Origin: an uncultured bacterium
Lineage (GTDB): Bacteria > Patescibacteriota > Microgenomatia > UBA1400 > CG1-02-47-37
NCBI GenBank assembly: GCA_963980215.1
Contig: CAXBYZ010000001.1
Coordinates: 7,370 to 71,369, forward strand
Length of the DNA: 64,000 nt
Direction of reading: 5' to 3'
Of this stretch, positions 2,257-62,914 are shown piece after piece; within the stretch, counting starts at the first letter, position 1, and the number at the start of each line of letters is the position of its first letter. The notes beneath the pieces are model-generated. The model saw nothing but the letters and a program-made list of their open reading frames with translations, was not told the origin of the DNA and did no database searches. A program made the position numbers and the translations under genes.

Positions 2257-3166
2257 AAGCCCACTCAATTAATTGAGTTGACTCTCCAAAACGGTCTTGA
2301 CTACCTAAAATAACGGTAATAATTTCTTGATTACCTCTTTTGGTGTAAGTGACCAAACACTCACCTGCTAACTCTGTCCAACCGGTTTTAACTCCGATTA
2401 AACCATCAAGGTTGCCCAAAAGTTCGTTAATGGTTTCTAAATCGTGAGTGATAGTATTGGTGGTGTCGCTAACCGAAATGGTTTTAGTGTTAACCATTTT
2501 TTTAAAAGTGGGGTTATCCATAGCAATGGCGGCTAGAATGGCAATATCATGAACGGTGCTGTAGTGGCCGTAAGAGTCTAGACCGGCAGGGTTTTGAAAT
2601 TGAGTATCTTTTAAGTTTAGTTCTCTAGTTTTGTCGTTCATGGCTTTAACAAAACCATTTTCTCCCTCTTTGTGAAAGTTGGCTAAAGCTGAAGCAGCGT
2701 CGTTACCCGACTGAACCAAAAGACCATAAAGCAAGTTTTTTACGGTGATTTCTTCTCCAGGTTCTAGCTCCATAATTTGACCGATGTTTTCTGGCGTGTT
2801 GATTGTGATTACTTGATCTAGTTGGTAGTTGTCTAAGACAACTAAGGCAGTCATGATCTTGGTGATTGATGCTAGGGGGAGTTTTAGATCAGGATTTTTT
2901 TGGTGCATAATTGCTTTTGAGTTTTGATCGATAACGATGATTGATTTAGCGGTTAGATATGGGGCATTGATGTTGGTGTAGTTAACTGGATAATCTGAGA
3001 TAGATAAAAATTGATGATTGGATGGTCTGACTATTGGATTGTCTTGAGATAAATTTAATGAATAGTAGTAGTTTCTGGCTGGAAGAAGAGAAAGGAAAAT
3101 AAGCCCAAGAATAAAGTTAGTTTTTAGCTTTGGAGAGGATTTAATAAACTTGAGAAAAGTCTTCAT
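2213..3166 (-). CDS. D-alanyl-D-alanine carboxypeptidase (PBP5/6, serine-type)
   Basis: Signal peptide, then SxxK (SITKIMTALVVLD), SGN (SGND) and KTG (KTGWT) active-site motifs. Confidence 0.8.
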   Translation of the reverse strand: MKTFLKFIKSSPKLKTNFILGLIFLSLLPARNYYYSLNLSQDNPIVRPSNHQFLSISDYPVNYTNINAPYLTAKSIIVIDQNSKAIMHQKNPDLKLPLASITKIMTALVVLDNYQLDQVITINTPENIGQIMELEPGEEITVKNLLYGLLVQSGNDAASALANFHKEGENGFVKAMNDKTRELNLKDTQFQNPAGLDSYGHYSTVHDIAILAAIAMDNPTFKKMVNTKTISVSDTTNTITHDLETINELLGNLDGLIGVKTGWTELAGECLVTYTKRGNQEIITVILGSQDRFGESTQLIEWAFNNHHWLEVPLATH

Positions 3167-4554
3167 TTGATAGATTTAAGGTGAAGTTCCTTTAATTGCT
3201 CTGGGGTTGGGATAGAAGGAGCATTTAGAACTGCAGTTTGGCCAGAAGAAATAGTTGGAAATGCCATGACTTCCCTTAGGTTTGGCTCACCGTATAGGAC
3301 CATTAAGAGTCTGTCTATTCCTGGAGCAATACCTCCGTGTGGAGGAACACCGTACTGGAAAGCGGTGAGCATGTGAGTAAATTCTTGTTTTTGTTCTTTG
3401 GTAAAACCAATTAGTTCAAAGATTTTTTCTTGAACTTTTGAATCGTGAATTCTAATAGATCCCCCGCCAACCTCAAAACCATTTAAAACTAAGTCATGCT
3501 GAAGGCCCCTAACTTTTAGAGGATCTTTGTCTAGCAGGTGAACGTCGTCTGGGTGAGGTGAAGTAAACATGTGATGACTGGGGGCAAATTGAGCATTACC
3601 TGAACCATGGAAGTAGTCTTCCTTTGATTGTTTGTTGAATAGAGGAAAGTCGAGTGTCCAAGCAAAAGCTAGTTCGTTTGGATCTTTTTTGTCCTTTCTT
3701 AAGTCAGGTTTATCTGAGCCGTATTTTTTTTGAGCCTCTGAGTGAGAAATTCTTGGCCAAGGTGTTTGTTGGATCTTTTTTTCTGGAAATATCTCTTTGA
3801 CTAAAGAGGTAAACATTTTTTCGGTGAGTTGGAGAATGTCTTCTTGAGTGACAAATGACATCTCGATATCTAGCTGAGTGAATTCTCCGTAGGCTCGATC
3901 GGCACGAGGGTCTTCGTCTCTAAAACATTTAGCAAATTGAAAGTAGCGCTCGAAACCGGCAACCATTAGAAGTTGTTTGTATTGTTGAGGGCTTTGAGGT
4001 AAAGCATAAAACTTACCTGCTTGAAGCCGAGATGGAACGAGAAAATCTCTGGCACCTTCTGGTGTGGTTTTGGTAAGAATAGGGGTTTCTATTTCGACAA
4101 AATCATGATTGGTTAAGTAGTCTCTGATGAACTTTACTGTCTTAGATCTGGTCTTGATGTTTCTATTCATGCGGGGTCTTCGAAGATCTAGGTAGCGATA
4201 CTTCATACGCATCTCTTCATTGATGTCGTGACCGTCTCCAGTAACGGGAATTGGTAGTTCTTTTGATTGGGTGATGATGTCTATTTTTTTGGCTTGGATT
4301 TCTACCTGACCGGTTTCTAGTTTGTCATTGGCTAATTTTCCGGGTCTTTTAACTACCTTGCCGGTAACGGCGATGACATATTCTGGTTTTAAAACAACAT
4401 CTAGGTTTTCGGCGATGACCTGAACTAGACCACTTCTATCTCGAAGGTCAAAGAAAACTAGCTTGCCATGACCCCTGACTGAGTTAACCCAACCTTTGAG
4501 TAAGATAGACTTACCGACATTTTCTGGAGTGGAAATGACTAAGGTTCTTTTCAT
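3163..4554 (-). CDS. aspS: aspartate--tRNA ligase (short archaeal/non-discriminating-type length)
   Basis: Class II aaRS motifs (FRDEDPRADR, QSPQQYKQLLMVAGFERYFQ, GGGSIRIHD). True ATG at complement 4552-4554 (MKRTLVIS); the track's longer ORF begins upstream at a non-conserved extension. Confidence 0.85.
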   Translation of the reverse strand: MKRTLVISTPENVGKSILLKGWVNSVRGHGKLVFFDLRDRSGLVQVIAENLDVVLKPEYVIAVTGKVVKRPGKLANDKLETGQVEIQAKKIDIITQSKELPIPVTGDGHDINEEMRMKYRYLDLRRPRMNRNIKTRSKTVKFIRDYLTNHDFVEIETPILTKTTPEGARDFLVPSRLQAGKFYALPQSPQQYKQLLMVAGFERYFQFAKCFRDEDPRADRAYGEFTQLDIEMSFVTQEDILQLTEKMFTSLVKEIFPEKKIQQTPWPRISHSEAQKKYGSDKPDLRKDKKDPNELAFAWTLDFPLFNKQSKEDYFHGSGNAQFAPSHHMFTSPHPDDVHLLDKDPLKVRGLQHDLVLNGFEVGGGSIRIHDSKVQEKIFELIGFTKEQKQEFTHMLTAFQYGVPPHGGIAPGIDRLLMVLYGEPNLREVMAFPTISSGQTAVLNAPSIPTPEQLKELHLKSIK

Positions 4555-5283: not shown

Positions 5284-5341
5284 AAAATGAGTTAGAGTTG
5301 AGTTATAATTAGTTGGTATCAGCTAAGTGTTTATAGACTTT

Positions 5342-5494
5342 ATTTTTAGCTGTAAGGTTTTGTTGCCGTTCCACTCGTTTTTATCGATAGTGTAGATAAT
5401 ATCTATTTTTTGACCTGATTTTAACTTGGTGGCTTTGGCGCCGAGATTAAAAGCGATGGCGGGCAGGTTGTCCTGCAGGGAGAGTCCTTGCAGG
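5342..5494. repeat. 153-bp perfect direct repeat, copy A (orphan copy of the recJ 3' coding end)
   Basis: Identical over 153 nt to 6056-6208 by direct comparison. About 12 nt further left shows degraded similarity (9/12). Confidence 0.9.
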
Positions 5495-5737
5495 TTAGTG
5501 ATAGGCGGATTGGCGGTGGGCGATGGAAAAAATGGTGATGGTTGAGCTTTTAATTGAGTAAATTATTCGGTAAGGCCAAGCTCTGACTGAGTATAAATCT
5601 TTTAATTCACCTCTTAAAATTTTGCCGGCTTTAGGGTCGTTGGTTAGGGCTTCTAGTTTTCTGACTATTTTTTTCTTTTCAACTAAAGGAAGTTTTTTGA
5701 GTTGTTTAATTACTTGAGGTTTATAAACAATCTTCAT
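5495..5737 (-). CDS. type II toxin, RelE/ParE superfamily
   Basis: 80 aa: KIVYKPQVIKQLKKLP...DPKAGKILRGELKDLYSVRAWPYRIIYSI...IFSIAHRQSAYH. Overlaps the upstream antitoxin by 4 nt (ATGA). Confidence 0.8.
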   Translation of the reverse strand: MKIVYKPQVIKQLKKLPLVEKKKIVRKLEALTNDPKAGKILRGELKDLYSVRAWPYRIIYSIKSSTITIFSIAHRQSAYH

Positions 5738-6006
5738 GGAGTTAAACCAATGGCTTTGAGCATGTCTGAGTGAGAGATAGTATTTGTTTCTTTTTTACTT
5801 TGACGTATAGCGGATAACTCTTTTTTGTTTTGTAAGATATCGAGAGTTTCTTGCCAAGACTCAAGCTCTTTTTTACTAATTAACACTACTGGTTCCGAAC
5901 CCCTCAATTTAATAACAAAACTTTTCAAGCCAAGACTGGCTGACTTGATGATTGAGTAAAGATTTTCCCTAGTTTCGCTTGCTGTAAGAGTTGCTGAATA
6001 ATTCAT
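5734..6006 (-). CDS. type II antitoxin, Phd/YefM family
   Basis: 90 aa: ...RENLYSIIKSASLGLKSFVIKLRGSEPVVLISKKELESWQETLDIL... Upstream of and translationally coupled to the RelE-like gene. Confidence 0.75.
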   Translation of the reverse strand: MNYSATLTASETRENLYSIIKSASLGLKSFVIKLRGSEPVVLISKKELESWQETLDILQNKKELSAIRQSKKETNTISHSDMLKAIGLTP

Positions 6007-6043: not shown

Positions 6044-7710
6044 GTAATAGATTTGATTTTTAGCTGTAAGGTTTTGTTGCCGTTCCACTCGTTTTTATCG
6101 ATAGTGTAGATAATATCTATTTTTTGACCTGATTTTAACTTGGTGGCTTTGGCGCCGAGATTAAAAGCGATGGCGGGCAGGTTGTCCTGCAGGGAGAGTC
6201 CTTGCAGGGTGAGTTTTAAGTGTTTTTGGTCTTGGCCAACGGTACGAAAATCTACAAGCTCAACCTTTTTACTAATAAAGAGGGGTGGTTTGTTGCCAAA
6301 ACCGCTTGGTTCTAGTTTTTCTAGTTCTTCAAATAATTCCCAGTTAATATCTGAAAGGTTTAGCTGACAGTCTATGTTTATGGTTGGGGTAAGTTGGTCT
6401 TTGGTAAGTTCTTTTTCTGCTAAATCTTCTAGCCTCTTTTGAACTTCTGGTAAGTTAACGTTTTTAACAGTAAAGCCGGCGGCCATTTGGTGACCACCGT
6501 GTTCTAAGATTATGTCTTCCATGCTTCTAATAGCTTTTAAAACATTAAAACCTTTGATGGATCTAGCTGAGGCTTTTGAAAATGTTTCTCCCATGGAGAC
6601 GACAAAGGCTGGTTTGTAGTATTTTTCTACTAAACGGCTGGCAACTAGACCAACAATACCTTCATGGTAAGACTGGTGTTGAACAAAATTTAGTTTCTTC
6701 TTTGATTGGTTGTGCTCGATTATTTGATTGTTGGCATGAAAGTACATCTTCATGGTTTTGTCTTGTCTTTCTAGGTTGGTTTGGTTTAGGTTGTTGGCTA
6801 GTTTGTTGGCTTTTTCTAGACTGGTGGTGCAGAGAAGTCTTAGAGAATCTAGAGCGTGTTCGAGTCTGGCCATGGCGTTTAACCTGGGACCAATCATATA
6901 GCCAATTTGGTAAGTGGCGATGGTTGGTAACTCTATCTTTGAAACTGAAGCGAGGGCATTTAAACCAATTCTTTTGGATTGTTTTAGTGACTCTAGGCCA
7001 AATTTAACTAAGGAGCGATTGGCTTTGGTAAGAGGAACCATGTCTGCGATAGTACCAATGGCAACTAGTTCTAGTGAAGTTTCTAGGTCTTTTAACTCTC
7101 TTGCTAAAAACCAAGAAACACCAACACCAGCTAACTTTGTGGTGTGAACAACACTAACTACTTTTGGGTAGTAGGGTTTTTTGTTTTTTACTTTTGGTTG
7201 GTGGTGGTCGGTGATGATGACATCGATACCCTTTTTGGCGGCATACTCAGAGCCTTTGAAAGCTGAGATGCCGTTATCTACAGTGATGATTAACTGACAG
7301 GGTCCATCCTTGTCAGAGAGAATTTGGTCGATGCCATCTGGAGATAGACCACGGATAGTGTCGCCTCTTCCGGGAATGTAGGGCATGACCTTGGCTTTTA
7401 AAGCGTGAAGAGATTCCCATAAGACTGCTGTAGAAGTGATGCCGTCGGCATCGTAGTCTCCGTAGATATAGATTAGCTCTTTATTCTTGATGGCTTTTTT
7501 GATACGAGTGACGGCTTTTTTTAGTTGAACTTTGTTAATACCCACATCCTCTGGTTTAATTTTTTCTGGATCGATAGGGTTTAGAAAATCTTTTTGGTCT
7601 GCTTTGGTTTTTATGCCTCGATTAATTAAGATAGCAGAGATAATTTTATCTCGTCTTTTTTTGAGATCAGTATCTTTTATTTTTGATTTGATTTTTATTA
7701 TCTTATCCAT
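6040..7710 (-). CDS. recJ: single-stranded-DNA-specific exonuclease RecJ
   Basis: DHH motifs (IYIYGDYDADGITSTAVL; VIITDHHQP) and DHHA1-like region. Start taken as ATG for MDKIIKIK (7710); the track ORF extends to 7836 with alternative starts 7725/7836. Confidence 0.85.
   Translation of the reverse strand: MDKIIKIKSKIKDTDLKKRRDKIISAILINRGIKTKADQKDFLNPIDPEKIKPEDVGINKVQLKKAVTRIKKAIKNKELIYIYGDYDADGITSTAVLWESLHALKAKVMPYIPGRGDTIRGLSPDGIDQILSDKDGPCQLIITVDNGISAFKGSEYAAKKGIDVIITDHHQPKVKNKKPYYPKVVSVVHTTKLAGVGVSWFLARELKDLETSLELVAIGTIADMVPLTKANRSLVKFGLESLKQSKRIGLNALASVSKIELPTIATYQIGYMIGPRLNAMARLEHALDSLRLLCTTSLEKANKLANNLNQTNLERQDKTMKMYFHANNQIIEHNQSKKKLNFVQHQSYHEGIVGLVASRLVEKYYKPAFVVSMGETFSKASARSIKGFNVLKAIRSMEDIILEHGGHQMAAGFTVKNVNLPEVQKRLEDLAEKELTKDQLTPTINIDCQLNLSDINWELFEELEKLEPSGFGNKPPLFISKKVELVDFRTVGQDQKHLKLTLQGLSLQDNLPAIAFNLGAKATKLKSGQKIDIIYTIDKNEWNGNKTLQLKIKSIT
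6056..6208. repeat. 153-bp perfect direct repeat, copy B (functional 3' end of recJ)
   Basis: Identical to 5342-5494. Encodes the last ~51 codons of RecJ (minus the final 4 codons). Confidence 0.9.
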
Positions 7711-7730: not shown

Positions 7731-9074
7731 ATGGAAGTTTTGCTACCGAAACTAGTCGTAAAAGTGATGGGGGTGCTGGAAAAGGCCGGATTTGAAGTAT
7801 ATGTGGTAGGAGGAGCGGTGAGAGATTTGCTTTCAAAAAAGAAAGTTTATGATTGGGATTTTACTACTAATGCAAAGCCTGAAGAAATTACTAAACTTTT
7901 TGAAGATAGTTTTTATGATAATGCTTTTGGAACAGTTGGAGTAGCTGAAAAACATTTGGGTGGTGATGGTGATGGTGTTTTTGAGATAACTACTTTTAGA
8001 AGTGAGGGAAAGTATAGTGATAAACGCCGACCAGATAAAGTGGTTTGGGGGAAGAGTTTGGATGAAGATTTAAAGAGAAGAGATTTTACTATTAATGCGA
8101 TGGCGATTGATAAGAATCTAAAGATTATTGATCCATTTGATGGCCAGAAAGACTTGAAAGCTAAGATTGTAAAGGCGGTGGGTGCAGCTGATGTACGATT
8201 TAATGAGGATGCATTAAGAATGATGAGAGCTATTCGAATTGCTGCTCAACTAGGATTTATTATTGAAGAAAAAACCTTGAAAGCTATTAGCAAGAACTCA
8301 AAACTGATTAATAAAATTGCACTTGAGAGAGTGAGAGATGAGTTTTTAAAGATTATTGCTTCTGACTACCCAAAAGATGGGGTTTTGATGTTGTTTAGTA
8401 GTGGTTTACTTGAACTTATTATTCCTGAGTTGATTGAGATGCGTGGAGTTGATCAAGCTGGGCACCACACAAAAGATGTGTGGAACCATAGTTTGGATGC
8501 ACTTGAAGCCTGTCCATCTAGTAATGTGATTGTGCGGCTTGCTACCCTACTTCATGATGTAGGTAAGCCAAAAGCCAATATGGATCGAGGGGTGGGTAAA
8601 GAGATTACTTTTTATAACCATGAGGTGATTGGAGCCAGAATGGTGAAGAAGATTGCCAGAAGACTTAAGATGAGCAAAAAACAGATTGATTTACTCTGGC
8701 TACTGGTACGCTGGCATATGTTTGCATATGATAGCCACATGACAGATAAATCAATTCGAAGATTTATTAAAAGAGTGGGGGTAGAGAATATTTCTAAAAT
8801 GATGGATTTGAGGGTTGGTGATCGAGTCGGGGGTGGAACTAAGGCAACTAGCTGGAGACTGGAAGAGTTGAAAAAAAGAATTGTGGAAGTTCAAAAAACG
8901 CCAATGCAAGTGAAAGACTTGAAAGTATCTGGCCATGATGTGATGGAGATTTTAGAGATTAAGGGTGGGAAAAAAGTGGGTGAGGTTTTAAATATCTTAT
9001 TTGAGGAAGTGATGGAAGATAGCGAGAAAAATGAGAGGGAGTACTTGTTAAAGAGGGTTAAGGAAGTTAAATAA
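7731..9074 (+). CDS. cca: CCA-adding tRNA nucleotidyltransferase (class II NTase head + HD domain)
   Basis: GGAVRDLL head motif; HD domain (HHTKDVWNHSLD...LLHDVGKP). Alternative start at 7767 (MGVLEKAGFEVYVVGG). Confidence 0.85.
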   Translation: MEVLLPKLVVKVMGVLEKAGFEVYVVGGAVRDLLSKKKVYDWDFTTNAKPEEITKLFEDSFYDNAFGTVGVAEKHLGGDGDGVFEITTFRSEGKYSDKRRPDKVVWGKSLDEDLKRRDFTINAMAIDKNLKIIDPFDGQKDLKAKIVKAVGAADVRFNEDALRMMRAIRIAAQLGFIIEEKTLKAISKNSKLINKIALERVRDEFLKIIASDYPKDGVLMLFSSGLLELIIPELIEMRGVDQAGHHTKDVWNHSLDALEACPSSNVIVRLATLLHDVGKPKANMDRGVGKEITFYNHEVIGARMVKKIARRLKMSKKQIDLLWLLVRWHMFAYDSHMTDKSIRRFIKRVGVENISKMMDLRVGDRVGGGTKATSWRLEELKKRIVEVQKTPMQVKDLKVSGHDVMEILEIKGGKKVGEVLNILFEEVMEDSEKNEREYLLKRVKEVK

Positions 9075-9088
9075 GACAATTACCTCTA

Positions 9089-9107
9089 TCACACCTTAGA
9101 GGTGTGA
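9089..9107. repeat. REP-like hairpin, family A (TCACACCT-TAG-AGGTGTGA)
   Basis: 8-bp stem/3-nt loop within the 21-mer ATCACACCTTAGAGGTGTGAT. Identical copies at 9819, 34731 and 47216. Confidence 0.7.
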
Positions 9108-9110
9108 TTT

Positions 9111-9785
9111 TTATTCTTCGAAGTCGAGCATGACTTTTTTGATGTTTTGAAGATTTCTTTGATGGTCGGCGTGATCGTAAACAAAATTTCGATATGAATT
9201 TTTTTGCTTAAAGTAACTTAGAACAATATCTTTTTGACAGTAGTTGGTATTGGTTAGATGTAGGTATTCAGGTAAAGATGAGTATTGATACTTATCTAAC
9301 TGATTAATATTTTCCGCCAAACCGGCACTGTAGGGATTTAAGTGGATGTAGCGAGAGAGATGTAGTAATTGTGACTCTGTCTCAACTAAAACAGATTTAA
9401 ATTTACCTTGAAAAATGGGGCCAATTCTTTTATTTTTTGTATTAAAATATCGAGTATAACTATTGGCAAATTTACTCATAAAATTAGAGATGCCGTTGTC
9501 AACTGATTGCTCTAACAGTAAGTGAAAATGGTTCGGCATAAAACAATAACTAATTATTTTTACTAAATGCTGTTTAGGTTTGTTGGGCTTTTTATCTTTA
9601 TCGAGGAATTGTTGACGAGAAAAATAGGAAAATCTAATTTTTGGAGATTCTTCTTGATAATAAAGCAGGGTATCTAGGCAGCGCCAATAGTGTCTTTCGT
9701 CTAAGAAAATTGGCATTGAAGCAACTCCGCGGTTAAAGATGTGATAAATGCTGTCTGTAATTAGAGGAGTTTTTCTCCCAGGCAT
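9111..9785 (-). mobile_element. REP-associated tyrosine transposase (RAYT; IS200/IS605-like HuH Y1 transposase), copy 1
   Basis: 224 aa with HuH motif (MPNHFHLLL) and catalytic-Tyr region (SRYIHLNPY). No tnpB partner; family-A REP hairpins sit 3 nt from its stop and 33 nt from its start. Confidence 0.8.
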
Positions 9786-9818
9786 ATTTTTATTATAACA
9801 TTCATCTACCTACCCCCA

Positions 9819-9837
9819 TCACACCTTAGAGGTGTGA
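9819..9837. repeat. REP-like hairpin, family A
   Basis: TCACACCTTAGAGGTGTGA. Overlaps the last 6 codons and the stop of secF. Confidence 0.7.
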
Positions 9838-10712
9838 TGTTTGGCCTTGAGATCCTCCCAGAGGACAAGGAGGGGGGCAGCGGTGAAGGTGGATGAGTAG
9901 GTGCCTGAGATAGTACCAATAAGTAGAGCAAAGACGAACCACTTGGTGGTGTCGCCACCCAAAAGATAGAGGGCAAGCAACATGAATATAATTGTTAAGG
10001 AGTTGTTGACTGATCGACCAAGAGTCTCGGTGACAGCTTTGTTGACTAGGTCTGTGTAGGACAGCCTGGGGTAAAGTTTGATGGATTCTCGGATACGATC
10101 GTAGACGACGATGGTGTCGTGAACTGAGAAAGAGAGAATGGTAAGGATGGCGGTGACAAAGAGAGCATCGACTTCAACTCCCCTAGTGACACCTAGGTAA
10201 CTAAAGATACCAACAGTAATAAAAGTGTCGTGAAGCATGGCCAAGATTGCACAGATACCGTACTTTTTATCTTTAAATCTAGTGGCTACGAAAACTAGGA
10301 TAAAACCGGCAGCGATAAAGACACCGATGAGAGTTTTTTTGATTAACTCTTTACCCATGGTTGGACCGACTGTCTCGAAACGAGTTTCTTCTACCTCCCC
10401 TAGCTGGTCTTCTAGGGTTTGTTTTATGGCTTGATTGGTTTCTTGATCGAACTGCTGAGCTTTAATGACAAAAATGTTGTTTTCTTGTTGTATAGCTTGA
10501 TTTAAGATAACGGTATCTTCAACAAGATTGGTAATTTTATCTAGTGACAACTCTTGGTCTTCTTTTGGAGTGATTGATATCTCTAAGATAGTTCCCCCAG
10601 TAAAGTCGACTGCTGGTTTTAGCCCGTGCTTGATTAGAAAAAAACTACTGGGAATCAGAAATAGTAAGGAGAAGAGAAAATAAAGTGTTTTGTACTTCAT
10701 GAAGTTGATCAT
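9819..10712 (-). CDS. secF: protein-export membrane protein SecF
   Basis: FTGGTILEISI and VHDTIVVYDRIRE motifs with 6 TM helices. The C-terminal HHTSKV and the stop are encoded by the REP hairpin. Confidence 0.85.
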   Translation of the reverse strand: MINFMKYKTLYFLFSLLFLIPSSFFLIKHGLKPAVDFTGGTILEISITPKEDQELSLDKITNLVEDTVILNQAIQQENNIFVIKAQQFDQETNQAIKQTLEDQLGEVEETRFETVGPTMGKELIKKTLIGVFIAAGFILVFVATRFKDKKYGICAILAMLHDTFITVGIFSYLGVTRGVEVDALFVTAILTILSFSVHDTIVVYDRIRESIKLYPRLSYTDLVNKAVTETLGRSVNNSLTIIFMLLALYLLGGDTTKWFVFALLIGTISGTYSSTFTAAPLLVLWEDLKAKHHTSKV

Positions 10713-20976: not shown

Positions 20977-21233
20977 ACCTATACCCCACCACCCATTTTA
21001 AACGACAACTAAAACAAAAAGCTAAGAAAAATTTCACATTAAAAAATTTAATTAAAAATAAATTAAATCTTCTCTTAGATGATTCTCGCCATCCTTCTTT
21101 AAGGTTACATAAATTAAAGGGTAAGAAAATTGATCAATACTCTATCTGGATAGAGTCTAATTTGAGAATAATTTTCTTAAAAGAAAAGGATAGCTACATT
21201 CTTACAGATTTGATAAATCACGATCAATATTAA
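20973..21233 (+). CDS. type II toxin, RelE/StbE family
   Basis: HPSLRLHKLKGKKIDQYSIWIESNLRIIFLKEKDSYILTDLINHDQY matches the RelE/StbE consensus. Confidence 0.7.
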   Translation: MNLYPTTHFKRQLKQKAKKNFTLKNLIKNKLNLLLDDSRHPSLRLHKLKGKKIDQYSIWIESNLRIIFLKEKDSYILTDLINHDQY

Positions 21234-21976
21234 AGAGATAGTAAGATTGTGAAGCCGAGGGTAAAGCAGTAGTAGCCAAAGAAGTGGAGTTTGCCGCATA
21301 CGACAAAACGTTTGAGGAGTTTTAGGGCGAAAACTCCTGAGAGAAGAGCGGTGAGGAAGCCAATAGCAAGAACGGGAAATTCTTTTGGAGATAAGCTTCC
21401 TAGTTTATTTAATTGAAGTAGTTGAGCTCCGGCAATAGCGGGAAGAGAGATGAGAAAAGAAAAATTGAAAGCGTCTTTTGGAGTTAAGCCTTGATGCAAA
21501 CCAGCAGTGATGGTGCTTCCTGATCTAGAGATACCAGGAAAGATGGCCAGGGCTTGGGCTAGGCCGATTAGAAATGAGTTTTTGGGGTTTAGCTTGGGTG
21601 TCAAGGTGTATCCCTGACGGATCTTTTTGGTTGAGAACAAGATTAAGCCAGTAAAAATTAAACTAAAACCAACTAACTTTAAAGAACCAAAGAGTTCTTC
21701 TATTTTTTGATTTAGTAGAATACCAAAAACTCCGGCTGGGATACTGGCTATTAGAATAAGCTTTATTTGATCTAGATTAATATTCTTTAGAGTTTCTCGT
21801 ATAACAATAACTACAGCTAAAGCAGTAGCTAAGTGAACAAAGACGTCAAAAACTACTGGGGGTTCTGTTAGTTTAAGTAGATTTTGAGCAATAACCAGGT
21901 GACCGGAACTACTTACCGGCAAAAATTCAGTAAGGCCTTGGATAAGACCTAATATTAATCCTTGAATTGGCGTCAT
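21230..21976 (-). CDS. uppP: undecaprenyl-diphosphatase
   Basis: GLTEFLPVSSSGHL and SRSGSTI motifs; 8 TM helices. Confidence 0.85.
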   Translation of the reverse strand: MTPIQGLILGLIQGLTEFLPVSSSGHLVIAQNLLKLTEPPVVFDVFVHLATALAVVIVIRETLKNINLDQIKLILIASIPAGVFGILLNQKIEELFGSLKLVGFSLIFTGLILFSTKKIRQGYTLTPKLNPKNSFLIGLAQALAIFPGISRSGSTITAGLHQGLTPKDAFNFSFLISLPAIAGAQLLQLNKLGSLSPKEFPVLAIGFLTALLSGVFALKLLKRFVVCGKLHFFGYYCFTLGFTILLSL

Positions 21977-34297: not shown

Positions 34298-34315
34298 AGA
34301 TTGATATATCAATCT
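34298..34315 (+). terminator. perfect 18-bp palindrome AGATTGATATATCAATCT followed by TTTAT (tRNA terminator or operator)
   Basis: Self-complementary by inspection. Shares the TGATATATCA core with a palindrome at 30157-30175. Confidence 0.35.
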
Positions 34316-34318
34316 TTA

Positions 34319-34337
34319 TCACACTCCAGGAGTGTGA
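34319..34337. repeat. REP-like hairpin, family A variant (TCACACTCCAGGAGTGTGA)
   Basis: Same ATCACAC...GTGTGAT arms as the canonical copies, different centre. Confidence 0.65.
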
Positions 34338-34348
34338 TATTATAAACA

Positions 34349-34729
34349 ATGAAAATAATAAAGAAATTAATTGAACCGAAGTATAGAAAGGAAGGTGGAT
34401 TGTGGATGTTGGATATTGATAAGATTGAAGTGGGGTTTGAGGTAAAACAACGATCTATAGTACATATTCCTCCTGGCCAACTAGGAGGCAATCACAAACA
34501 CCCCAGGACTGAAGCGTTTATTGGAATTGGTAGAGAGTTAGAGTTGGTGTGGAAAGAAAATGAGAAGCTAATAAAAGAGATGATGAATCCAGGGGGACAG
34601 CTAGTATTGTTTACTATTCCTCCACAAGTGGAGCATGCGGTGAAAAATAAGTCTGAAGCTGAAAACGGGATGTTGATTGAGTTGGCTGATGCTGAACAAG
34701 ATCTGGTAGAAGTTTGTAAATTAATCTAG
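34349..34729 (+). CDS. cupin-domain protein
   Basis: Cupin motif 1 GGNHKHPRTEAFIGIG (G-x-H-x-H-x3-E-x6-G) and motif 2 PPQVEHAVKN (P-x-x-x-H-x3-N). Confidence 0.65.
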   Translation: MKIIKKLIEPKYRKEGGLWMLDIDKIEVGFEVKQRSIVHIPPGQLGGNHKHPRTEAFIGIGRELELVWKENEKLIKEMMNPGGQLVLFTIPPQVEHAVKNKSEAENGMLIELADAEQDLVEVCKLI

Positions 34730-34730
34730 A

Positions 34731-34749
34731 TCACACCTTAGAGGTGTGA
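34731..34749. repeat. REP-like hairpin, family A
   Basis: TCACACCTTAGAGGTGTGA. Sits 1 nt after the cupin stop and supplies the stop plus HTSKV to the convergent phosphoribosyltransferase gene. Confidence 0.7.
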
Positions 34750-35279
34750 TTTTGGAAATATTTGACTTGTTCGGGGGAGAAATTAAGGGATTTGAGGGAG
34801 TCGAGTTTGCCTAGTTTTTTAAGGTCGTCTATGGTCTCTCTAACATCGTAAGCAAAAACTACCCACTTGTCTGTTTTGATTTGCCAGTAATCTGGCAAGG
34901 GTTTACTCCAAGGTTTGATAATGGGAGTGAAAGTGGTAATTTTTTTGGGTTTTAGGGGCTTTAAATAATTAAAGGCGGCTTTTAGAGTAGTACCTTTATC
35001 TGTAATTTCGTCGACTAGTAAAATTGACTCGCCTTTGATATCAACAGCTAATTTTTCAACAATTTTGGGCTCGCCGGAATTGCCAACACTGGCGTAGGAA
35101 ACGAGAGTGAAATTGGATATAGGTAGCTTTAGAAAATCTGAGAGAATGCGAGAGATGACTAAACCGCCACGAGAGATACAAACAATGCGATCGAACTTTA
35201 TTTTTTTGTCGATAACCGTTTTTGAAAATTGAAAGCAGTGGTCTTGGATTTGATCCCAAGAAATGTATTGAAATTTCAT
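34731..35279 (-). CDS. phosphoribosyltransferase (type I PRTase fold)
   Basis: PRPP-binding motif ILLVDEITDKGTTL. The C-terminal NHTSKV and the stop are REP-encoded. Confidence 0.7.
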   Translation of the reverse strand: MKFQYISWDQIQDHCFQFSKTVIDKKIKFDRIVCISRGGLVISRILSDFLKLPISNFTLVSYASVGNSGEPKIVEKLAVDIKGESILLVDEITDKGTTLKAAFNYLKPLKPKKITTFTPIIKPWSKPLPDYWQIKTDKWVVFAYDVRETIDDLKKLGKLDSLKSLNFSPEQVKYFQNHTSKV

Positions 35280-35291
35280 AGGTTTACTCTA

Positions 35292-35310
35292 TCACGCTCC
35301 AGGAGTGTGA
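35292..35310. repeat. REP-like hairpin, family A variant (TCACGCTCCAGGAGTGTGA)
   Basis: One mismatch in the stem relative to the 34319 copy. Confidence 0.6.
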
Positions 35311-35327
35311 TTGGGTGGTGTATTGGC

Positions 35328-38513: not shown

Positions 38514-39581
38514 ATGAAGAAAGTGAAATCAAAACAAATTGACGATGGTTTGAGAGAAATCATACTCTATAGAACAGCTAGTGATCAGGTTAGGGTGGAG
38601 GTTTTTTTAATCAATGAAACTTTGTGGCTGACTCAAGAGAGGATAGCTAAAGTTTTTGGGGTTCAAAGGCCGGCCATTACCAAGCATTTAAGAAATATAT
38701 TTGCTAGTGGTGAGTTAGACGAAAAAGGGGTTAGTTCCATTTTGGAACACACCACTAAGCATGGGGCTATCAAGGGAAAATCTCAGGTTGGCAAAGTTAA
38801 GTATTATAATCTTGATGTGATTATTGCCGTAGGATATAGGGTTAATAGTAAGCGTGCGACTCAATTTAGAATTTGGGCTACTAGTGTATTAAAAGAGTAT
38901 GTGGTTAAGGGTTTTGCTATGGATGATAATAGGCTTAAAGATCCTAAATATTTTTTTGGTAAAGATTACTTTGAGGAGCAGTTAGCCAGAATTAGAGATA
39001 TTCGCTCGAGCGAGCGTAGGTTTTATCAAAAAATTACTGATATCTACGCCGAGTGTAGTGCGGATTATGATTCAGATGAAGAAATAACTAGAGAATTTTT
39101 TGCCACGGTGCAAAATAAGCTTCACTTTGCCGTCTCTGGGCAAACAGCTGCCGAGATTATTAATGCTAGAGTGTCTAGTAGAAAACCCAATATGGGATTA
39201 ACTACTTGGAAAAATTCCCCTAAAGGTAAAGTTAGAGAGGCTGATGTGGAAATTGCTAAAAATTATTTAAGTGAAAAGGAATTAGACCATCTCAATAGAA
39301 TCGTATCTATGTATCTCGATTATGCTGAGCTTCAAGCAAAAAGGGGGCGAGTCATGTATATGAAGGATTGGGTAAAAAAACTTGATGCTTTTTTACATTT
39401 TAATGATCAGGATATTTTGCAAGGAAAAGGTGAGGTCAGCCATGAAGTGGCAGTGGCGCTGGCAAAAAAAGAGTATAAGGCTTTTTGTATTAAACAAGAT
39501 AAAAATTACTTGTCAGATTTTGATAAGTTTAGTGGACAATATTTGGAGCAGCTGGATAAGAAAACTAATGACAAACTGTAA
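38514..39581 (+). CDS. RhuM-family protein (virulence protein RhuM family)
   Basis: Strong similarity to the RhuM pattern from memory: IILYRT...VRVEVFLINETLWLTQERIAKVF...YYNLDVIIAVGYRVNSKRATQFRIWAT...LKEY..KGF..DD.RLK...YF.E...RIRDIRSSERRFYQKITDIYA...DY. Confidence 0.65.
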   Translation: MKKVKSKQIDDGLREIILYRTASDQVRVEVFLINETLWLTQERIAKVFGVQRPAITKHLRNIFASGELDEKGVSSILEHTTKHGAIKGKSQVGKVKYYNLDVIIAVGYRVNSKRATQFRIWATSVLKEYVVKGFAMDDNRLKDPKYFFGKDYFEEQLARIRDIRSSERRFYQKITDIYAECSADYDSDEEITREFFATVQNKLHFAVSGQTAAEIINARVSSRKPNMGLTTWKNSPKGKVREADVEIAKNYLSEKELDHLNRIVSMYLDYAELQAKRGRVMYMKDWVKKLDAFLHFNDQDILQGKGEVSHEVAVALAKKEYKAFCIKQDKNYLSDFDKFSGQYLEQLDKKTNDKL

Positions 39582-39876
39582 AGATAAAGCTTTAAAGTGG
39601 GTGGGTAAAATTCCCAAAGGGAAAGTGGCAACTTATGGGCAAATTGCTAAGTTGGCGGGAATGAAAGGGGCCAGGCCGGTGGGAAATTGGCTTCATACTC
39701 ACGGACAACCAATCACCATAGTTCCCTGCCACCGGGTGGTAAATAGTAAGGGTGGGTTGGCGAAAAATTTTGGAGCCAAAGGGAAGATTCAAACCCAAAA
39801 AAAGCGATTGGAGTCCGAGGGGGTGAAGGTTAAAAACTATAATGTTGATTTGGATAAATTTTTATGGAAGGGGTAG
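39568..39876 (+). CDS. MGMT-family DNA-binding-domain protein (retains the -PCHRV- Cys)
   Basis: 102 aa from ATG 39568 (MTNCKDKALKWVGKIPKGKVATYGQIAKLAG...IVPCHRVV). Overlaps the RhuM end by 14 nt in another frame; the track ORF 39382.. is an upstream alt-start extension. Confidence 0.65.
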   Translation: MTNCKDKALKWVGKIPKGKVATYGQIAKLAGMKGARPVGNWLHTHGQPITIVPCHRVVNSKGGLAKNFGAKGKIQTQKKRLESEGVKVKNYNVDLDKFLWKG

Positions 39877-39902: not shown

Positions 39903-39912
39903 AAAATACAAA

Positions 39913-39931
39913 TCACACTCCCGGAGTGTGA
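39913..39931. repeat. REP-like hairpin, family A variant (TCACACTCCCGGAGTGTGA)
   Basis: Contains the CACTCCCGGAGTG core found in the rplM/rplQ insertions. Confidence 0.65.
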
Positions 39932-39936
39932 TTTGG

Positions 39937-40785: not shown

Positions 40786-40812
40786 TTTGGGTAAATTATA
40801 GCAAAGAAAGTG

Positions 40813-40839
40813 CCTACAGGGTCGGACCCTGAAGGTTGG
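40813..40839. repeat. REP-like element, family B (CCTACAGGGTCGGACCCTGAAGGTTGG)
   Basis: CTAC + palindrome CAGGGTC-G-GACCCTG + GAAGGT. Confidence 0.6.
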
Positions 40840-40885: not shown

Positions 40886-41563
40886 ATGAAGAAACTAAAG
40901 AAAAAGTTGTTGATATCAAAGTGGTTGGGATTAGGATTGCTGATCCCCTCTTTATTGCTGAATGCCTACTTTGTTAGTCGGCCAAAAAGTGATTATGGAA
41001 TTGAAGTGATGGAGGTGTTGGATGGAGATACTTTGCTATTGGAAGGGAAAACTCGATTGAGGTTACGGCAAGTGGATATGCCGGAACTTGATAATTGTTA
41101 TGGACAGGAAGCTAAACAATTATTGGAAGAGATGGTAAAGGGAAAGAAAATTACTATTCAAGATAAAATCTTGGATCAGCGAGGTCGAGCCATGGCTTTG
41201 GTCTATTTGGGAGATAGATTAGTCAACTTGGAGTTATTAAAGAATGGTATGGGACGGTATCATTCGGACAAAACTCGAGCGACTGAGGAGTTGAAAGCGG
41301 CCGGAGCCAAAGCGAAGGCAGAAAATTTGGGAGTGTACTCGCCGGAGTGTTACCAACAAGAAAAAAATTTGGAAAAACCGGAGTGTATTATTAAGGGAAA
41401 TATCGATTTAAATAATCAAAGTATTAAGAGATATTACTACCCGGGTTGTGCCCAGTATAAATTCGTGATTGTGGAGAAAGATAAAGGTGAAGATTGGTTT
41501 TGTAGTGAAGCGGAGGCTGAGGTGGCAGGGTATGTGAAGGCTAAATCCTGCCCGGAGGGATGA
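40886..41563 (+). CDS. secreted staphylococcal-nuclease (SNase/thermonuclease) family nuclease with C-terminal Cys-containing domain
   Basis: Signal/TM N-terminus; SNase motifs [36 protein letters not shown]-terminal KGNI...YYYPGCAQY...[13 protein letters not shown] module. Confidence 0.75.
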
Positions 41564-41581
41564 AGTTTTAAGAGAAGGTTG

Positions 41582-41604
41582 CCTACAAGGTTGGACCCTG
41601 AAGG
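41582..41604. repeat. REP-like element, family B (CCTACAAGGTTGGACCCTGAAGG)
   Basis: Same CTACA-GG...CCCTGAAGG framework as the 40813 copy. Confidence 0.6.
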
Positions 41605-41625: not shown

Positions 41626-42270
41626 ATGAATATGAAAAAGCGAATGTTTTTTGCGTCAAGCATAGATAGAGTGGCAAGTCATATAGTTGGGAAAATTGAA
41701 GGAGGAGTGGATGGACTAAAGTCGGTGTTTATTAATACAGCTGCGGAAGCGGAGGAAGGTGATAAAAGTTGGATGGAAATTGATAGAACTGGATTAAATG
41801 AAGCTGGAATTAAAACTTTTGATTATACTATTACCGGTAAAACTAAAAGTGATTTGGAACGAGATTTAGGTGATTGTGAGTGGATCCATGTAAATGGCGG
41901 AAATGCTTTTTATTTACTACTCCAAATGCGAAAGTCGGGGTTTGACCAATTTATTAAGAGGCAGATTAATAAAGGGGTTATTTATTCCGGTTCAAGTGCT
42001 GGCTCGATAGTGGCGGCACCGGATATTGAAATTACTAAATGTATTGAGAGTAAAGACTTTGAAAAAGAGCTTGGAAGTTTTGAAGGATTAGGATTAGTAG
42101 ATTTTATTACTCTACCTCATTGGGGTGGTGATGATTTTAGAGAATTATATTTAAATCAAAAAATTAAGTCTGCTTATAGAAAAGGGAATAAAATCATTTT
42201 GTTGAATGATGATCAGTATGTGGAAGTGGTGGATGGAAATTATAAAATTGTGGATGTAACGAAAGATTAA
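41626..42270 (+). CDS. peptidase S51 (dipeptidase E-like)
   Basis: GGNAFYLL and GSSAGSIV (Ser nucleophile) motifs. Confidence 0.7.
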   Translation: MNMKKRMFFASSIDRVASHIVGKIEGGVDGLKSVFINTAAEAEEGDKSWMEIDRTGLNEAGIKTFDYTITGKTKSDLERDLGDCEWIHVNGGNAFYLLLQMRKSGFDQFIKRQINKGVIYSGSSAGSIVAAPDIEITKCIESKDFEKELGSFEGLGLVDFITLPHWGGDDFRELYLNQKIKSAYRKGNKIILLNDDQYVEVVDGNYKIVDVTKD

Positions 42271-42273
42271 AAG

Positions 42274-42298
42274 ACCTTCAAGGACTGTCCTTGAAGGT
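42274..42298. repeat. REP-like element, family B, perfect 12-bp-arm palindrome (ACCTTCAAGGAC-T-GTCCTTGAAGGT)
   Basis: Perfect inverted repeat by inspection. Confidence 0.6.
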
Positions 42299-47204: not shown

Positions 47205-47215
47205 AGTTACCTCTA

Positions 47216-47234
47216 TCACACCTTAGAGGTGTGA
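47216..47234. repeat. REP-like hairpin, family A
   Basis: TCACACCTTAGAGGTGTGA. Supplies the stop and HTSKV to cmk. Confidence 0.7.
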
Positions 47235-47938
47235 TTGATTAATTTGAGGTGGAGGAGTTTTTTGATGATTGCTTCTACAACTTGGTTGATTGTTAGTTTT
47301 GTGGTTTTTAGTAACCAAGCTCCTGGAACAATTTTAAGTGGATCTGCTTCTCTACCAGAATCTTGTTGGTCTCTTTTTTTTGTTTGTTTTAGAGTGGCTG
47401 GAAATGATTGTTTGGTTCCTTTTTTTGATAACTCAATGTGTCTACGTTTGGCTCTTGATTCAACTGAAGCTGTCATGAATATTTTAATGTCTGCCTTGGG
47501 AAGAACAACTGAAGTGATGTCCCTGCCCTCCATAACAACGCTTTGTTTTTTTGCCATTGTTTTTTGAAGATTGACCAAGTGTTTTCTTACCCTTGGAAGA
47601 GTAGCTACCGAAGAAGCTCCCCAACTGATTTTCTCTGATCGAAGTTCTTTGGTGACATCTTTGTTGTCTAACATAACAGTGCAGAAGCGACTGTTGTTTT
47701 TGGGTGGATAGAGCGAGATTTTTGATTTTTTTAGTAAAGGAATTAATTCTTTTTCATTGGTAAATTCAATTGAATTTCTTTGAGCTATTAGAGCGACTGT
47801 CCGATACATTGAACCGGTGTCGATGTAGGTAATGCTTAGTTGTTTAGATAGTAAGCGAGCGATGGTGCTTTTTCCCGCTCCAGCTGGACCGTCGATGGCA
47901 ATTTGAATATTCTTGGTAGGTTTATACTTTGGCTTCAT
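47216..47938 (-). CDS. cmk: cytidylate kinase
   Basis: IAIDGPAGAGKST P-loop and CMP-binding region. The C-terminal HTSKV and stop are REP-encoded. Confidence 0.8.
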   Translation of the reverse strand: MKPKYKPTKNIQIAIDGPAGAGKSTIARLLSKQLSITYIDTGSMYRTVALIAQRNSIEFTNEKELIPLLKKSKISLYPPKNNSRFCTVMLDNKDVTKELRSEKISWGASSVATLPRVRKHLVNLQKTMAKKQSVVMEGRDITSVVLPKADIKIFMTASVESRAKRRHIELSKKGTKQSFPATLKQTKKRDQQDSGREADPLKIVPGAWLLKTTKLTINQVVEAIIKKLLHLKLINHTSKV

Positions 47939-62100: not shown

Positions 62101-62106
62101 AAGGCA

Positions 62107-62134
62107 ATAAAAAAATCGCTCACAATAGGCGATT
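62107..62134 (-). promoter_or_regulatory. hairpin AATCGC-N9-GCGATT followed by U7 on the minus strand, in the fusA leader (attenuator/terminator-like)
   Basis: Stem 62114-62119/62129-62134; A-run 62107-62113 on the plus strand, which is a T/U-run on the minus strand, directly before the fusA ATG. Confidence 0.4.
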
Positions 62135-62171
62135 GCTTTGTGAAAATAGCTTTTTATAAATTAGTAGAGGT

Positions 62172-62200
62172 ATTATAGACAAGAAATGTGATTTTGTCTA
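62172..62200 (-). promoter_or_regulatory. near-consensus promoter for fusA-tuf (TAGACA-17nt-TATAAT on the minus strand)
   Basis: Complement of TGTCTA (62195-62200) and ATTATA (62172-62177). Confidence 0.45.
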
Positions 62201-62224
62201 GAGAAAGAGTGTGTGGATTGTATA

Positions 62225-62248
62225 CCTACAGGGATCATCCTTGAAGGT
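62225..62248. repeat. REP-like element, family B (CCTACAGGGATCATCCTTGAAGGT)
   Basis: CTAC + hairpin CAGGGAT-C-ATCCTTG (one G.T) + AAGGT. Sits 15 nt upstream of the RAYT-2 start. Confidence 0.65.
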
Positions 62249-62412
62249 ATATAATGATTATAGATGCCTCCCAAGAATGCTGTAAAAAAATATAAACCAA
62301 GGTCTATTTATCATGTTTATAATAGAGGTGCTGGAAAACAAAATATTTTTAAAGATGAAGAGGATTACAAAACATTATTAGGTTATTTTAAATTTTATTT
62401 AACTCCCATAGA

Positions 62413-62436
62413 CCTACAGGGATCATCCTTGAAGGT
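62413..62436. repeat. REP-like element, family B, in frame inside the RAYT-2 CDS
   Basis: CCTACAGGGATCATCCTTGAAGGT translated as (D)LQGSSLKV, in frame +2 relative to the repeat. Confidence 0.65.
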
Positions 62437-62716
62437 GGCTCCATCTAGGGTATTAAAGAATCATGCTCTAAAAATTGAGTTGATTGCCTACTGCTTAATG
62501 TCAAATCACTTCCATTTAATTCTCTATCAGGAGGAGATTGATTCAATAAATAGTTTTTTGAGGTCAGTTGCAACTAAGTATGCAATGTATTTTAACCGTA
62601 AATACAAGAGAACTGGTCATTTATTTGAAGGTATATATAAGGCTGTTTTAATGAAAACTGAAGAACAGTTATTACACTTATCTAAATATATTCATAGGAA
62701 TCCTCTAGAGATTTTA

Positions 62717-62740
62717 CCTACAGGGATGATCCTTGAAGGT
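62717..62740. repeat. REP-like element, family B, in frame inside the RAYT-2 CDS
   Basis: CCTACAGGGATGATCCTTGAAGGT translated as PTGMILEG, in frame 0. This differs from the frame of the 62413 copy. Confidence 0.65.
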
Positions 62741-62914
62741 TATAAATATTCGAGTTACGGGAATTATTTAAAACAATTTACGCAAACCTGGGTGAAATCT
62801 GAAAAGGTTATGAGTGTGTTTAACAGAGTTGATCATGAATATTCATCATATAAAGAATTTGTTGAAAAAAATGAAGAAATTATAAAATTTAAAGAAGTTT
62901 TATTGGATTATTAG

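Follow-up and report, generated by a model that had tools for sequence, protein, structure and literature searches.

A probable REPtron-like module of a RAYT-like HUH/Y1 nuclease and dispersed hairpins in Candidatus Beckwithbacteria

Results

The secF-cca locus and its hairpins

In the 64-kb stretch of contig CAXBYZ010000001.1 analysed here (the window), which stems from an uncultured bacterium, a minus-strand open reading frame (ORF) of 224 amino acids at 9111..9785 lies between cca, the gene of the CCA-adding enzyme (7731..9074, plus strand), and secF (9819..10712, minus strand). The encoded protein has a HuH motif (PNHFHLL) and a catalytic-tyrosine motif (SRYIHLNP), as stated in an earlier note on this DNA, and matches the Pfam family Y1_Tnp with an E value of 5.6e-9. 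We refer to the gene as RAYT1, after the REP-associated tyrosine transposases (RAYT; REP, repetitive extragenic palindrome). Inspection of the neighbourhood revealed no tnpB, in agreement with the note, and no ends of an insertion sequence (IS). There is also no second close copy within the 64 kb; apparently, RAYT1 is a single-copy gene. It is bracketed by two exact copies of the 21-mer ATCACACCTTAGAGGTGTGAT at 9088-9108 and 9818-9838, the former 2 nt from the end of the stop codon and the latter 32 nt from the start codon, and the identical flanking hairpins described before are indeed present. Both loops read TTAGA on the plus strand. We name this repeat REP-A; it consists of a perfect stem of 8-9 bp and a loop of 3-5 nt, usually with the tag TTACCTCT ahead. 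The features of the locus are as follows.

9111..9785, minus strand: RAYT1, gene of a RAYT-like HUH/Y1 nuclease with H86-F-H88, Y146 in SRYIHLNP and a helical C-terminal extension of about 65 amino acids
9080..9108, plus strand: REP-A copy at the 3′ end of RAYT1, with the tag TTACCTCT at 9080-9087 and the hairpin ATCACACC-TTAGA-GGTGTGAT at 9088-9108
9810..9839, plus strand: REP-A copy upstream of RAYT1, with a hairpin at 9817-9839 (10-bp stem) and the degenerate tag CTACCCCC
9786..9817, minus strand: upstream region of RAYT1, with an extended -10-like element TGTTATAAT (plus strand 9792-9800) 6 nt ahead of the ATG

Elsewhere in the window the exact 21-mer is found at 34730 and 47215. Three more sites, at 34318, 35291 and 39912, belong to a variant subfamily, A′ (ATCAC[A/G]CTCC-N-GGAGTGTGAT), which has the same stem base but a different apex. 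The five further family-A copies listed in the earlier note thus comprise two exact ones and three variants, and its coordinates were off by one base. The four exact sites of the window compare with none in 100 dinucleotide-preserving shuffles, and single-stranded copies fold as hairpins of 9-10 bp with -8 to -9.8 kcal/mol (z of -5.5 to -7.6).

34722..34750, plus strand: solo REP-A between two convergent genes, a cupin-domain ORF and a phosphoribosyltransferase gene
47207..47235, plus strand: solo REP-A with the full TTACCTCT tag at the cmk-map junction
34314..34338, plus strand: variant A′ ATCACACTCCAGGAGTGTGAT upstream of the cupin-domain ORF
35287..35311, plus strand: variant A′ ATCACGCTCCAGGAGTGTGAT with the tag TTTACTCT, upstream of the phosphoribosyltransferase ORF
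39908..39932, plus strand: variant A′ ATCACACTCCCGGAGTGTGAT with a 13-bp stem, downstream of a methyltransferase-domain ORF (39382..39876)

The tag is on the plus strand in every REP-A and A′ copy of the window. GC skew is strongly positive on that strand throughout the window (+0.08 to +0.25), and most genes, the ribosomal protein operons included, are on the minus strand.

RAYT1 is related to TnpA-REP

The sole NCBIfam model matched by RAYT1 is REP_Tyr_transpos (NF047646). All 28 family members analysed match the same model (the best E value being only 4e-17), and just two of the 28 match the IS200 model, weakly; the profile check proposed in the earlier note therefore came out in favour of a RAYT. 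In an alignment of the 28 members, H86, H88, Y146, N150 and P151 are invariant. The class-2 (TnpA-REP-like) proteins are marked by the signature Y-x3-NP and the IS200 transposases by Y-x3-Q (Quentin 2018, Table 1, PMC6006769). With its HUH motif and a single catalytic tyrosine in Y-x3-N-P, RAYT1 falls among the class-2 TnpA-Y1 proteins.

A phmmer search with the RAYT1 sequence against the PDB sequences found no Y1 protein, and a family profile gave only weak matches to ISDra2 (E 0.006) and 4ER8 (E 0.018). The fold was therefore assessed by structure comparison. The AlphaFold2 model (predicted local distance difference test, pLDDT, of 87.6) is nearest to TnpA-REP of Escherichia coli, 4ER8, and nearer to it than to the transposases of IS608 and ISDra2. 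Residues 160-222 form a helical C-terminal region in the model; no helix-turn-helix (HTH) domain was matched there or elsewhere in RAYT1 by Pfam. RAYT1 has more in common with TnpA-REP, the REP-associated tyrosine transposases, than with the transposase of IS200. Its motif set (NHFH, FQG, YIHLNP) and its length of 224 amino acids fit subclass 2.1 (Bertels group 1), an assignment made on motifs only.

A search of a set of 5.8 billion proteins returned 7007 relatives. The best 120 of these are 51-100% identical to RAYT1 and, except for two truncated entries, 223-248 amino acids long; the named entries among these 120 come from Beckwithbacteria, Levybacteria, Microgenomates or the 'Patescibacteria group' and are annotated as 'transposase'. 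In an exhaustive search of representatives at 50% identity, 407 clusters were found at E <= 1e-30 and 8260 at E <= 1e-10.

The hairpins change with the protein, and the gene keeps its place

Orthologues of RAYT1 with 58-64% identity are found between secF and cca in L001 (CP011210), L010, L012, L017 and L019-21 (L numbers denote the other sequences compared), that is, in at least five other Beckwithbacteria assemblies. The order secD-secF-RAYT-cca-recJ is conserved and the neighbouring proteins are 60-88% identical across those species, which fits vertical inheritance. In L018 (annotated as Levybacteria) and L082-L085 the gene is at other positions. A hairpin is present on each side of the gene in 13 of the 13 family members examined, where sequence is available, and three types of flanking sequence can be distinguished.

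L012/L055, L010/L066/L070, L064, L004/L028 and L075 (49-64% identity to RAYT1): the identical 21-mer on both sides
L001, L017 and L019-21, a second Beckwithbacteria clade (58-61% identity to RAYT1): ATCACACAC-CGG/CCG-GTGTGTGAT on both sides
L018 (annotated as Levybacteria) and L082-L085 (51-55% identity to RAYT1): different stems (TTCCACC, ACCAACC, CCACC and others)

The apex is shared within the last group: downstream it reads ACC-TCTAA-GGT, and upstream ACC-TTAGA-GGT in four of the five, the exception being L084 with TCTAA on either side. The hairpin varies with the protein lineage while the apex is kept, which is the pattern expected if the protein reads the hairpin. It could be argued that the adjacency is due to chance, since intergenic spacers are short and the window has several other hairpin families, so that common intergenic hairpins would merely happen to flank a transposase relic. 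The empty shuffles against four exact copies, the occupation of both sides in all 13 members and the change of the hairpin with the protein lineage all contradict this, and we regard its probability as negligible.

L018 (CP066685.1, Levybacteria) also has a solo copy of its own RAYT-flanking hairpin, TTTCCACCTTAGAGGTGGAAA, at 1010-1030, inside a gene called as 5-enolpyruvylshikimate-3-phosphate (EPSP) synthase (447-1604).

The earlier note had the two flanking hairpins in the same orientation. This is true for the loops in the window, but in relatives the loop can be flipped while the tag stays on the same strand; judged by the tag, both RAYT-flanking copies are on one strand in the window, L012, L010 and L001, even with inverted loops. 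A Y1 gene between two tagged same-strand hairpins, spaced by about 730 nt, is laid out like an IS200/IS605 element with its ends, and in L004/L028 and L075 such a unit, with the identical 21-mer, has other genomic surroundings. The locus could therefore be read as a minimal tnpA-only element of the IS200 type, with the two hairpins as its ends and the solo hairpins as decayed or miniature derivatives. However, the gene has stayed between secF and cca in at least five further assemblies, at protein identities down to 58%, which is not the behaviour of an active insertion sequence, and no near-identical second copy was seen. The tyrosine motif is Y-x3-NP and not Y-x3-Q, the protein has 224 instead of about 150 amino acids, only two of 28 members match the IS200 model, and these weakly, and the fold is nearer to TnpA-REP than to the IS608 and ISDra2 transposases. 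In addition, one of the supposed ends encodes the C terminus and the stop codon of an essential gene, secF. Taken together, we consider an IS200-type element very unlikely.

REP-A is dispersed and its sites vary between species

In a scan of a genome collection the exact 21-mer turned up in 16 stretches, which come from several species and include nine exact copies over seven contigs of one Beckwithbacteria metagenome-assembled genome (MAG). A scan of metagenomes found it in 60 stretches, 18 of which are contigs of one metagenome. When both scans are pooled, the 21-mer occurs in 65 distinct flank contexts. Parts of the window recur at 99.9-100% identity in four contigs (L027, L044, L051 and L078). 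Three of these four share their sample with L022, which does not overlap with the window and bears one more copy; the family therefore very probably reaches past the 64 kb. The presence of the repeat elsewhere, on which the earlier note had made its reading depend, is thus seen at other sites of the window, on the non-overlapping contig and in many related genomes. In syntenic regions, copies absent from the window are present in L003 (at 5148), L011 (at 4694) and L016 (at 6743).

The consensus 5′ flank over the 65 contexts is TTACCTCT, with at least six of its eight positions matched at 31 of 64 scorable sites. Relative to the tag, both loop orientations are found (19 TTAGA and 12 TCTAA). The 3′ flank is mostly T- or G-initial, without a CCA tail.

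Two kinds of irregularity were seen at REP-A sites. In three contig pairs (L054:1098/L080:1434, L053:1775/L048:684 and L046:277/L065:1281) one side of the repeat is shared and the other is wholly different; the cause is either rearrangement at the repeat or chimeric assembly. Partial half-hairpin duplications adjoin full copies at L046:277, L076:13676, L010 around 7410 and L017 around 9940. Examples are ...GGTGTGAT-AGAGGTGTGAT, CTCTATCACACCTT-T-ATCACACC... and ACATCACAC...ACATCACAC upstream of the copy at the secF end; the duplications might be scars left when a single site was hit repeatedly.

REP-A copies are built into gene junctions

On the gene strand REP-A reads ...CAC ACC TCT AAG GTG TGA-T-AGAGGTAA, and the HTSKV* that it encodes ends secF, the phosphoribosyltransferase (34731..35279) and cmk. 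On the minus strand, secF takes its five final codons and its TGA stop from the copy at 9810..9839, and in all syntenic species the secF stop codon is inside the hairpin. The copy at 47215 makes up the whole cmk-map junction: on the minus strand, cmk ...HTSKV-TGA is followed by AGAGGTAACT and this by the map ATG. Over all loci, the TGA in the stem ends 21 of the 39 long ORFs that read into the hairpin, and an ATG with an open frame follows 3-11 nt past AGAGG at 14 of the 31 strongly tagged sites. From its position, AGAGG would be a Shine-Dalgarno-like ribosome-binding site (RBS), for example for map. A T-run follows the copy at 9088 and gives it, on the plus strand, the look of an intrinsic terminator, which might serve cca. 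Plain transcription terminators were also considered for REP-A as a whole and rejected, since a T-run is found after only some copies. All in all, the copies would seem to have become working parts of gene junctions in this compact genome.

The Y1 protein could alternatively be a fully domesticated hairpin-binding factor, either a regulator or a factor for hairpin processing or resolution in replication, with the hairpins as immobile host elements (terminator, stop-plus-RBS module or operator) and the likeness to a REPtron, the assembly of a TnpA-REP gene and its REPs, as a historical one only. Both flanking copies are ancient and fixed, with the secF stop inside the hairpin in all syntenic species; other copies are embedded in junctions, as seen from the three window genes that end in HTSKV* and from the spaced ATG at 14 of 31 tagged sites; the copy number is low; and some relatives have no solo copies in the DNA fetched. 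The upstream hairpin also adjoins the presumed RAYT1 promoter, which would suit autoregulation. On the other hand, the metal-binding histidine pair and the catalytic tyrosine are invariant in the family, and nuclease/ligase chemistry, beyond binding, has therefore been preserved. The identical 21-mer occurs in 65 contexts, its sites vary between species with conserved gene order, half-hairpin duplications beside full copies (L010, L017, L046, L076) suggest repeated events at the DNA level, and the T-run after only some copies does not suit a terminator. We therefore regard a purely domesticated binding factor as unlikely, though it is the most serious alternative.

Upstream region of RAYT1 and the cca side

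The spacing TATAAT-N6-ATG is identical in L012, and TGTTATAAT may act as the RAYT1 promoter, in which case the mRNA may be leaderless. A promoter scan for consensus hexamers did not call TGTTATAAT; such a scan needs both hexamers, and for this reason we only infer the promoter.

In L012, the closest sequenced relative, two additional genes lie between cca and the RAYT-proximal hairpin (3040-4320). One is an ORF of 190 amino acids, the other an ORF of 201 amino acids that may be histidine-phosphatase-like, judged by its N-terminal YLARHGE. The AGAGG tag of the hairpin is placed there as an RBS for the two genes; the window has the tag (9075-9087) but not the genes.

A second RAYT and other repeats in the window

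The second RAYT/REP family announced in the earlier note is also present, with its own gene and a hairpin distinct from REP-A.

62264..62914 (region 62217-62941), plus strand: RAYT2, second Y1 nuclease gene, 216 amino acids, 37% identical to RAYT1

RAYT2 is flanked by the family-B hairpin CCTACAGGGATCATCCTTGAAGG, and two further B copies lie within its coding sequence in different frames, read as DLQGSSLKV and LPTGMILEG; 20 homologues retain both of these internal sites. All four hairpins are changed together in the orthologous loci L086 5959-6680 (CCTGCAAGGAGACTCCTTGCAGG) and L087 5963-6690 (CCTGCAAGGAGACTCCTCGCAGG), which on sequence comparison looks like concerted evolution. Recent insertion of the internal hairpins was considered and rejected, since their positions are conserved across the family. 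In-frame REPs inside tnpA-REP genes had earlier been reported only for subclass 2.4 (Quentin 2018, PMC6006769). RAYT2 runs opposite to fusA (EF-G) and rpsG (S7), between which it lies in the rpsL-rpsG-fusA-tuf cluster (window 59944-63418), and has the same position in L086 3660-7179, a relative with 59% identity.

Variants of family B, CCTACAGGGTCGGACCCTGAAGG and the perfect palindrome CCTTCAAGGACTGTCCTTGAAGG, are found at 40811-40835, 41580-41604 and 42274-42298, where they bracket a staphylococcal-nuclease-domain ORF (40886..41563) and a peptidase S51 ORF (41626..42270). Tandem pairs of a third hairpin (CACTCC-N-GGAGTG) lie at 42811-42880 and 43284-43353, in frame in the C-terminal tails of the ribosomal proteins L13 (42794..43279) and L17 (43282..43701). 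Each hairpin encodes TPGV, and the TPGV tails run past the Pfam domains and outside the orthologue matches in sequence L003.

A direct repeat of 162 nt (99% identical; 5333-5494 and 6047-6208) duplicates the 3′ end of recJ and brackets a Phd/YefM antitoxin ORF (5734..6006) and an ORF of 80 amino acids (5495..5737). The latter may be the toxin partner, and the whole has the appearance of a toxin-antitoxin cassette that entered at the 3′ end of recJ.

Discussion

A REPtron-like module

We propose that the locus is a REPtron-like module of Candidatus Beckwithbacteria (Microgenomates, candidate phyla radiation) in which a domesticated RAYT1 is paired with its cognate REP-A hairpins, and we consider this reading probable. 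It is built on the catalytic motifs and the fold of the protein, the flanking of the gene, the change of the hairpin with the lineage, synteny, dispersal and the site differences between species. DNA cleavage, the cut site and present-day mobility would follow by analogy with characterised systems.

Several observations weigh against this proposal. RAYT1 scores 53.3 bits and so stays below the equivalog cutoff of NF047646, which is 80 bits. The GT[AG]G tetranucleotide of canonical REPs is not found in REP-A over the 65 contexts, and a CCTCT-type tag is present instead. Copy number is low, with four exact copies in 64 kb and nine in the related MAG; RAYT systems of groups 2 and 3 have many tens to hundreds. 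Several more distant relatives have no copies beyond the two flanking ones in the 10-20 kb fetched. A comparison of the REP site in L038 with window 21060-21380 gave no clean insertion footprint, the spacer being too diverged, and since filled and empty sites show no such footprint, the site differences between species could partly come from loss and not from gain. Finally, the motifs NHFH, FQG and YIHLNP match subclass 2.1, which is reported to be REP-free (PMC6006769).

RAYT1/REP-A works like a REPtron but lacks two canonical marks, the GTAG tag and an NCBIfam score at equivalog level. The earlier note had spoken of the diagnostic architecture of REP-associated tyrosine transposases; this holds in so far as hairpins bracket the gene in all 13 members and REP-A is dispersed, at low copy number, but the form is not canonical. 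'Atypical' structures without GTAG have been accepted for subclass 2.6 and class 3 (Quentin 2018, PMC6006769), and we therefore file RAYT1/REP-A as a REPtron variant.

A possible mechanism can be modelled on TnpA-REP and the TnpA of IS608, both of which bind hairpins of single-stranded DNA. RAYT1 would bind the REP-A hairpin in folded single-stranded DNA, probably at replication forks, and would read the apex (ACC-TTAGA-GGT) together with the stem. With a metal held by H86/H88 and with Y146 it would cut and rejoin one strand beside the hairpin foot, a CT of the CCTCT tag being a plausible site. Such cutting and rejoining would spread, replace and homogenise the REP-A copies of a genome, and each unit would give the upstream gene a stop and a hairpin and the downstream gene a Shine-Dalgarno-like AGAGG.

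Implications

It is tempting to speculate further that short, GTAG-less hairpins with a CCTCT tag are maintained by a large RAYT-like clade (the 407 clusters at 50% identity with E <= 1e-30) of Beckwithbacteria, Levybacteria and other Microgenomates/Patescibacteria, and that these hairpins are co-opted as 29-nt stop-hairpin-RBS junctions and evolve in concert in each genome, including, in the sister system, the copies inside RAYT2. We put this forward tentatively, as an idea that has rather less than an even chance of being right. If it is true, repeat families are driven by a RAYT subclass that has been held to be REP-free, reduced genomes of about 1 Mb can still retain REP systems, and the CGTC/CCTC-tagged REPs might be given their missing enzyme partner.

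The host group is new, with at least two RAYT systems in one genome of the candidate phyla radiation; a related complete genome has about 1 Mb. Both systems sit among core genes (secF/cca and the rpsG-fusA operon), and essential gene junctions are formed in part by the repeats. The REP/RAYT systems characterised before come from larger genomes, mostly of Proteobacteria, Cyanobacteria and Bacteroidetes. The statement of the earlier note that RAYTs are mainly described in Proteobacteria is not borne out, as many phyla are represented in Quentin 2018 (PMC6006769) and Bertels 2017. The occurrence of two systems here deserves attention because genomes with TnpA-Y1 genes were reported to be significantly larger than those without (Quentin 2018, PMC6006769). 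In full-text searches of the literature we found no paper on REP/RAYT systems in the candidate phyla radiation or Patescibacteria, the one joint match being an archaeal locus, and the supplements of Quentin 2018 (PMC6006769) have no entries from the candidate phyla radiation.

For annotation, it matters that such genes in MAGs of the candidate phyla radiation are labelled just 'transposase', and that the HTSKV* gene ends and the TPGV tails of ribosomal proteins are repeat-derived sequence. The 21-nt perfect hairpin with its strongly conserved loop and the protein of 224 amino acids offer a compact model for DNA recognition by a subclass 2.1-like Y1 nuclease; to our knowledge, no biochemistry exists for subclass 2.1.

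Comparison with known systems

One of the closest known systems is the REPtron of E. coli (TnpA-REP/RayT, 4ER8, with REP/BIME; subclass 2.2, Bertels group 2). Here too a single-copy HUH/Y1 gene with the class-2 Y-x3-NP motif is bracketed by its own dispersed extragenic hairpins and is syntenic across species. However, RAYT1 is only 12-14% identical to E. coli TnpA-REP, has 224 instead of 165 amino acids and possesses an additional helical C-terminal region. The REPs of E. coli are longer, bulged and GTAG-tagged, number hundreds and occur as inverted pairs (bacterial interspersed mosaic elements, BIMEs, or REPINs), whereas REP-A is a perfect hairpin of 21 nt with a CCTCT-type tag, present in few, mostly single copies that overlap gene ends. 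In the same-strand tags of its RAYT1-flanking copies it is more like the ends of IS200/IS605 than like the inverted pairs of E. coli.

In hairpin size REP-A equals the REPs of REPtron Sm of Stenotrophomonas maltophilia (group 3, subclass 2.5), which are perfect palindromes of 8 bp with a 3-nt loop (Corneloup 2021, PMC8266576). The TnpA-REP of S. maltophilia cuts at a CT dinucleotide, loop bases matter for its activity, and the tetranucleotide at the hairpin foot guides the choice of the cut site in TnpA-REP and IS608-type systems (PMC8266576). In REP-A, too, the loop is strongly conserved and the tag contains CT dinucleotides; the Sm REPs differ in that they carry GTAG and are very abundant, and their protein belongs to another subclass, with the motifs DH[LF]H, WQ and YI[VI]ANP.

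By its motifs RAYT1 resembles subclass 2.1 (Bertels group 1, the 'TIRYT' of Di Nocera 2013), with NH[YF]H, FQ and Y[IV]HLNP, a length of about 220-240 amino acids and a C-terminal extension; the second motif of the subclass can also be W[EQ], and its typical length is about 238 amino acids. The flanking 16-mers of group 1 have about 12 occurrences (Bertels 2017), a low frequency as in REP-A. For subclass 2.1, neither automatic nor manual searches found REPs (Quentin 2018, PMC6006769); the subclass is reported to be without REP-like structures and to have terminal inverted repeats, GGGG[AT][CG]A[CG], whereas RAYT1 is flanked by dispersed hairpins. The C terminus of subclass 2.1 is similar to HTH/DnaA_C-like domains, and no such Pfam domain was matched in RAYT1.

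The locus has in common with IS200 (subclass 1.1) that two subterminal hairpins of the same strand enclose a Y1 HUH gene of about 0.7 kb, and by analogy the recognition of a single-strand hairpin is likely to be the chemistry of RAYT1 as well. IS200, however, has a Y-x3-Q transposase of about 150 amino acids and multiple near-identical copies at variable sites, and elements of the IS200/IS605 type often have a tnpB partner, whereas RAYT1 is syntenic, divergent between species and equipped with class-2 motifs.

The CGTC-tagged REPs, as described in the text of Di Nocera 2013 (PMC3733652), have a tag that varies to TGTC or CCTC, a stem of 8-9 bp starting from A·T pairs, a loop of 4-5 nt and a CCA tail, and that description associates no transposase with them. 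Judged by it alone, the CCTC(T) tag, the AT-initial stem and the 5-nt loop of REP-A agree and the CCA tail is absent; a kinship of the two is a lead only. As a whole, the RAYT1 locus presents a known arrangement, that of the REPtron, in an unusual form, with repeats that are low in copy number, CCTCT-tagged and embedded in gene junctions.

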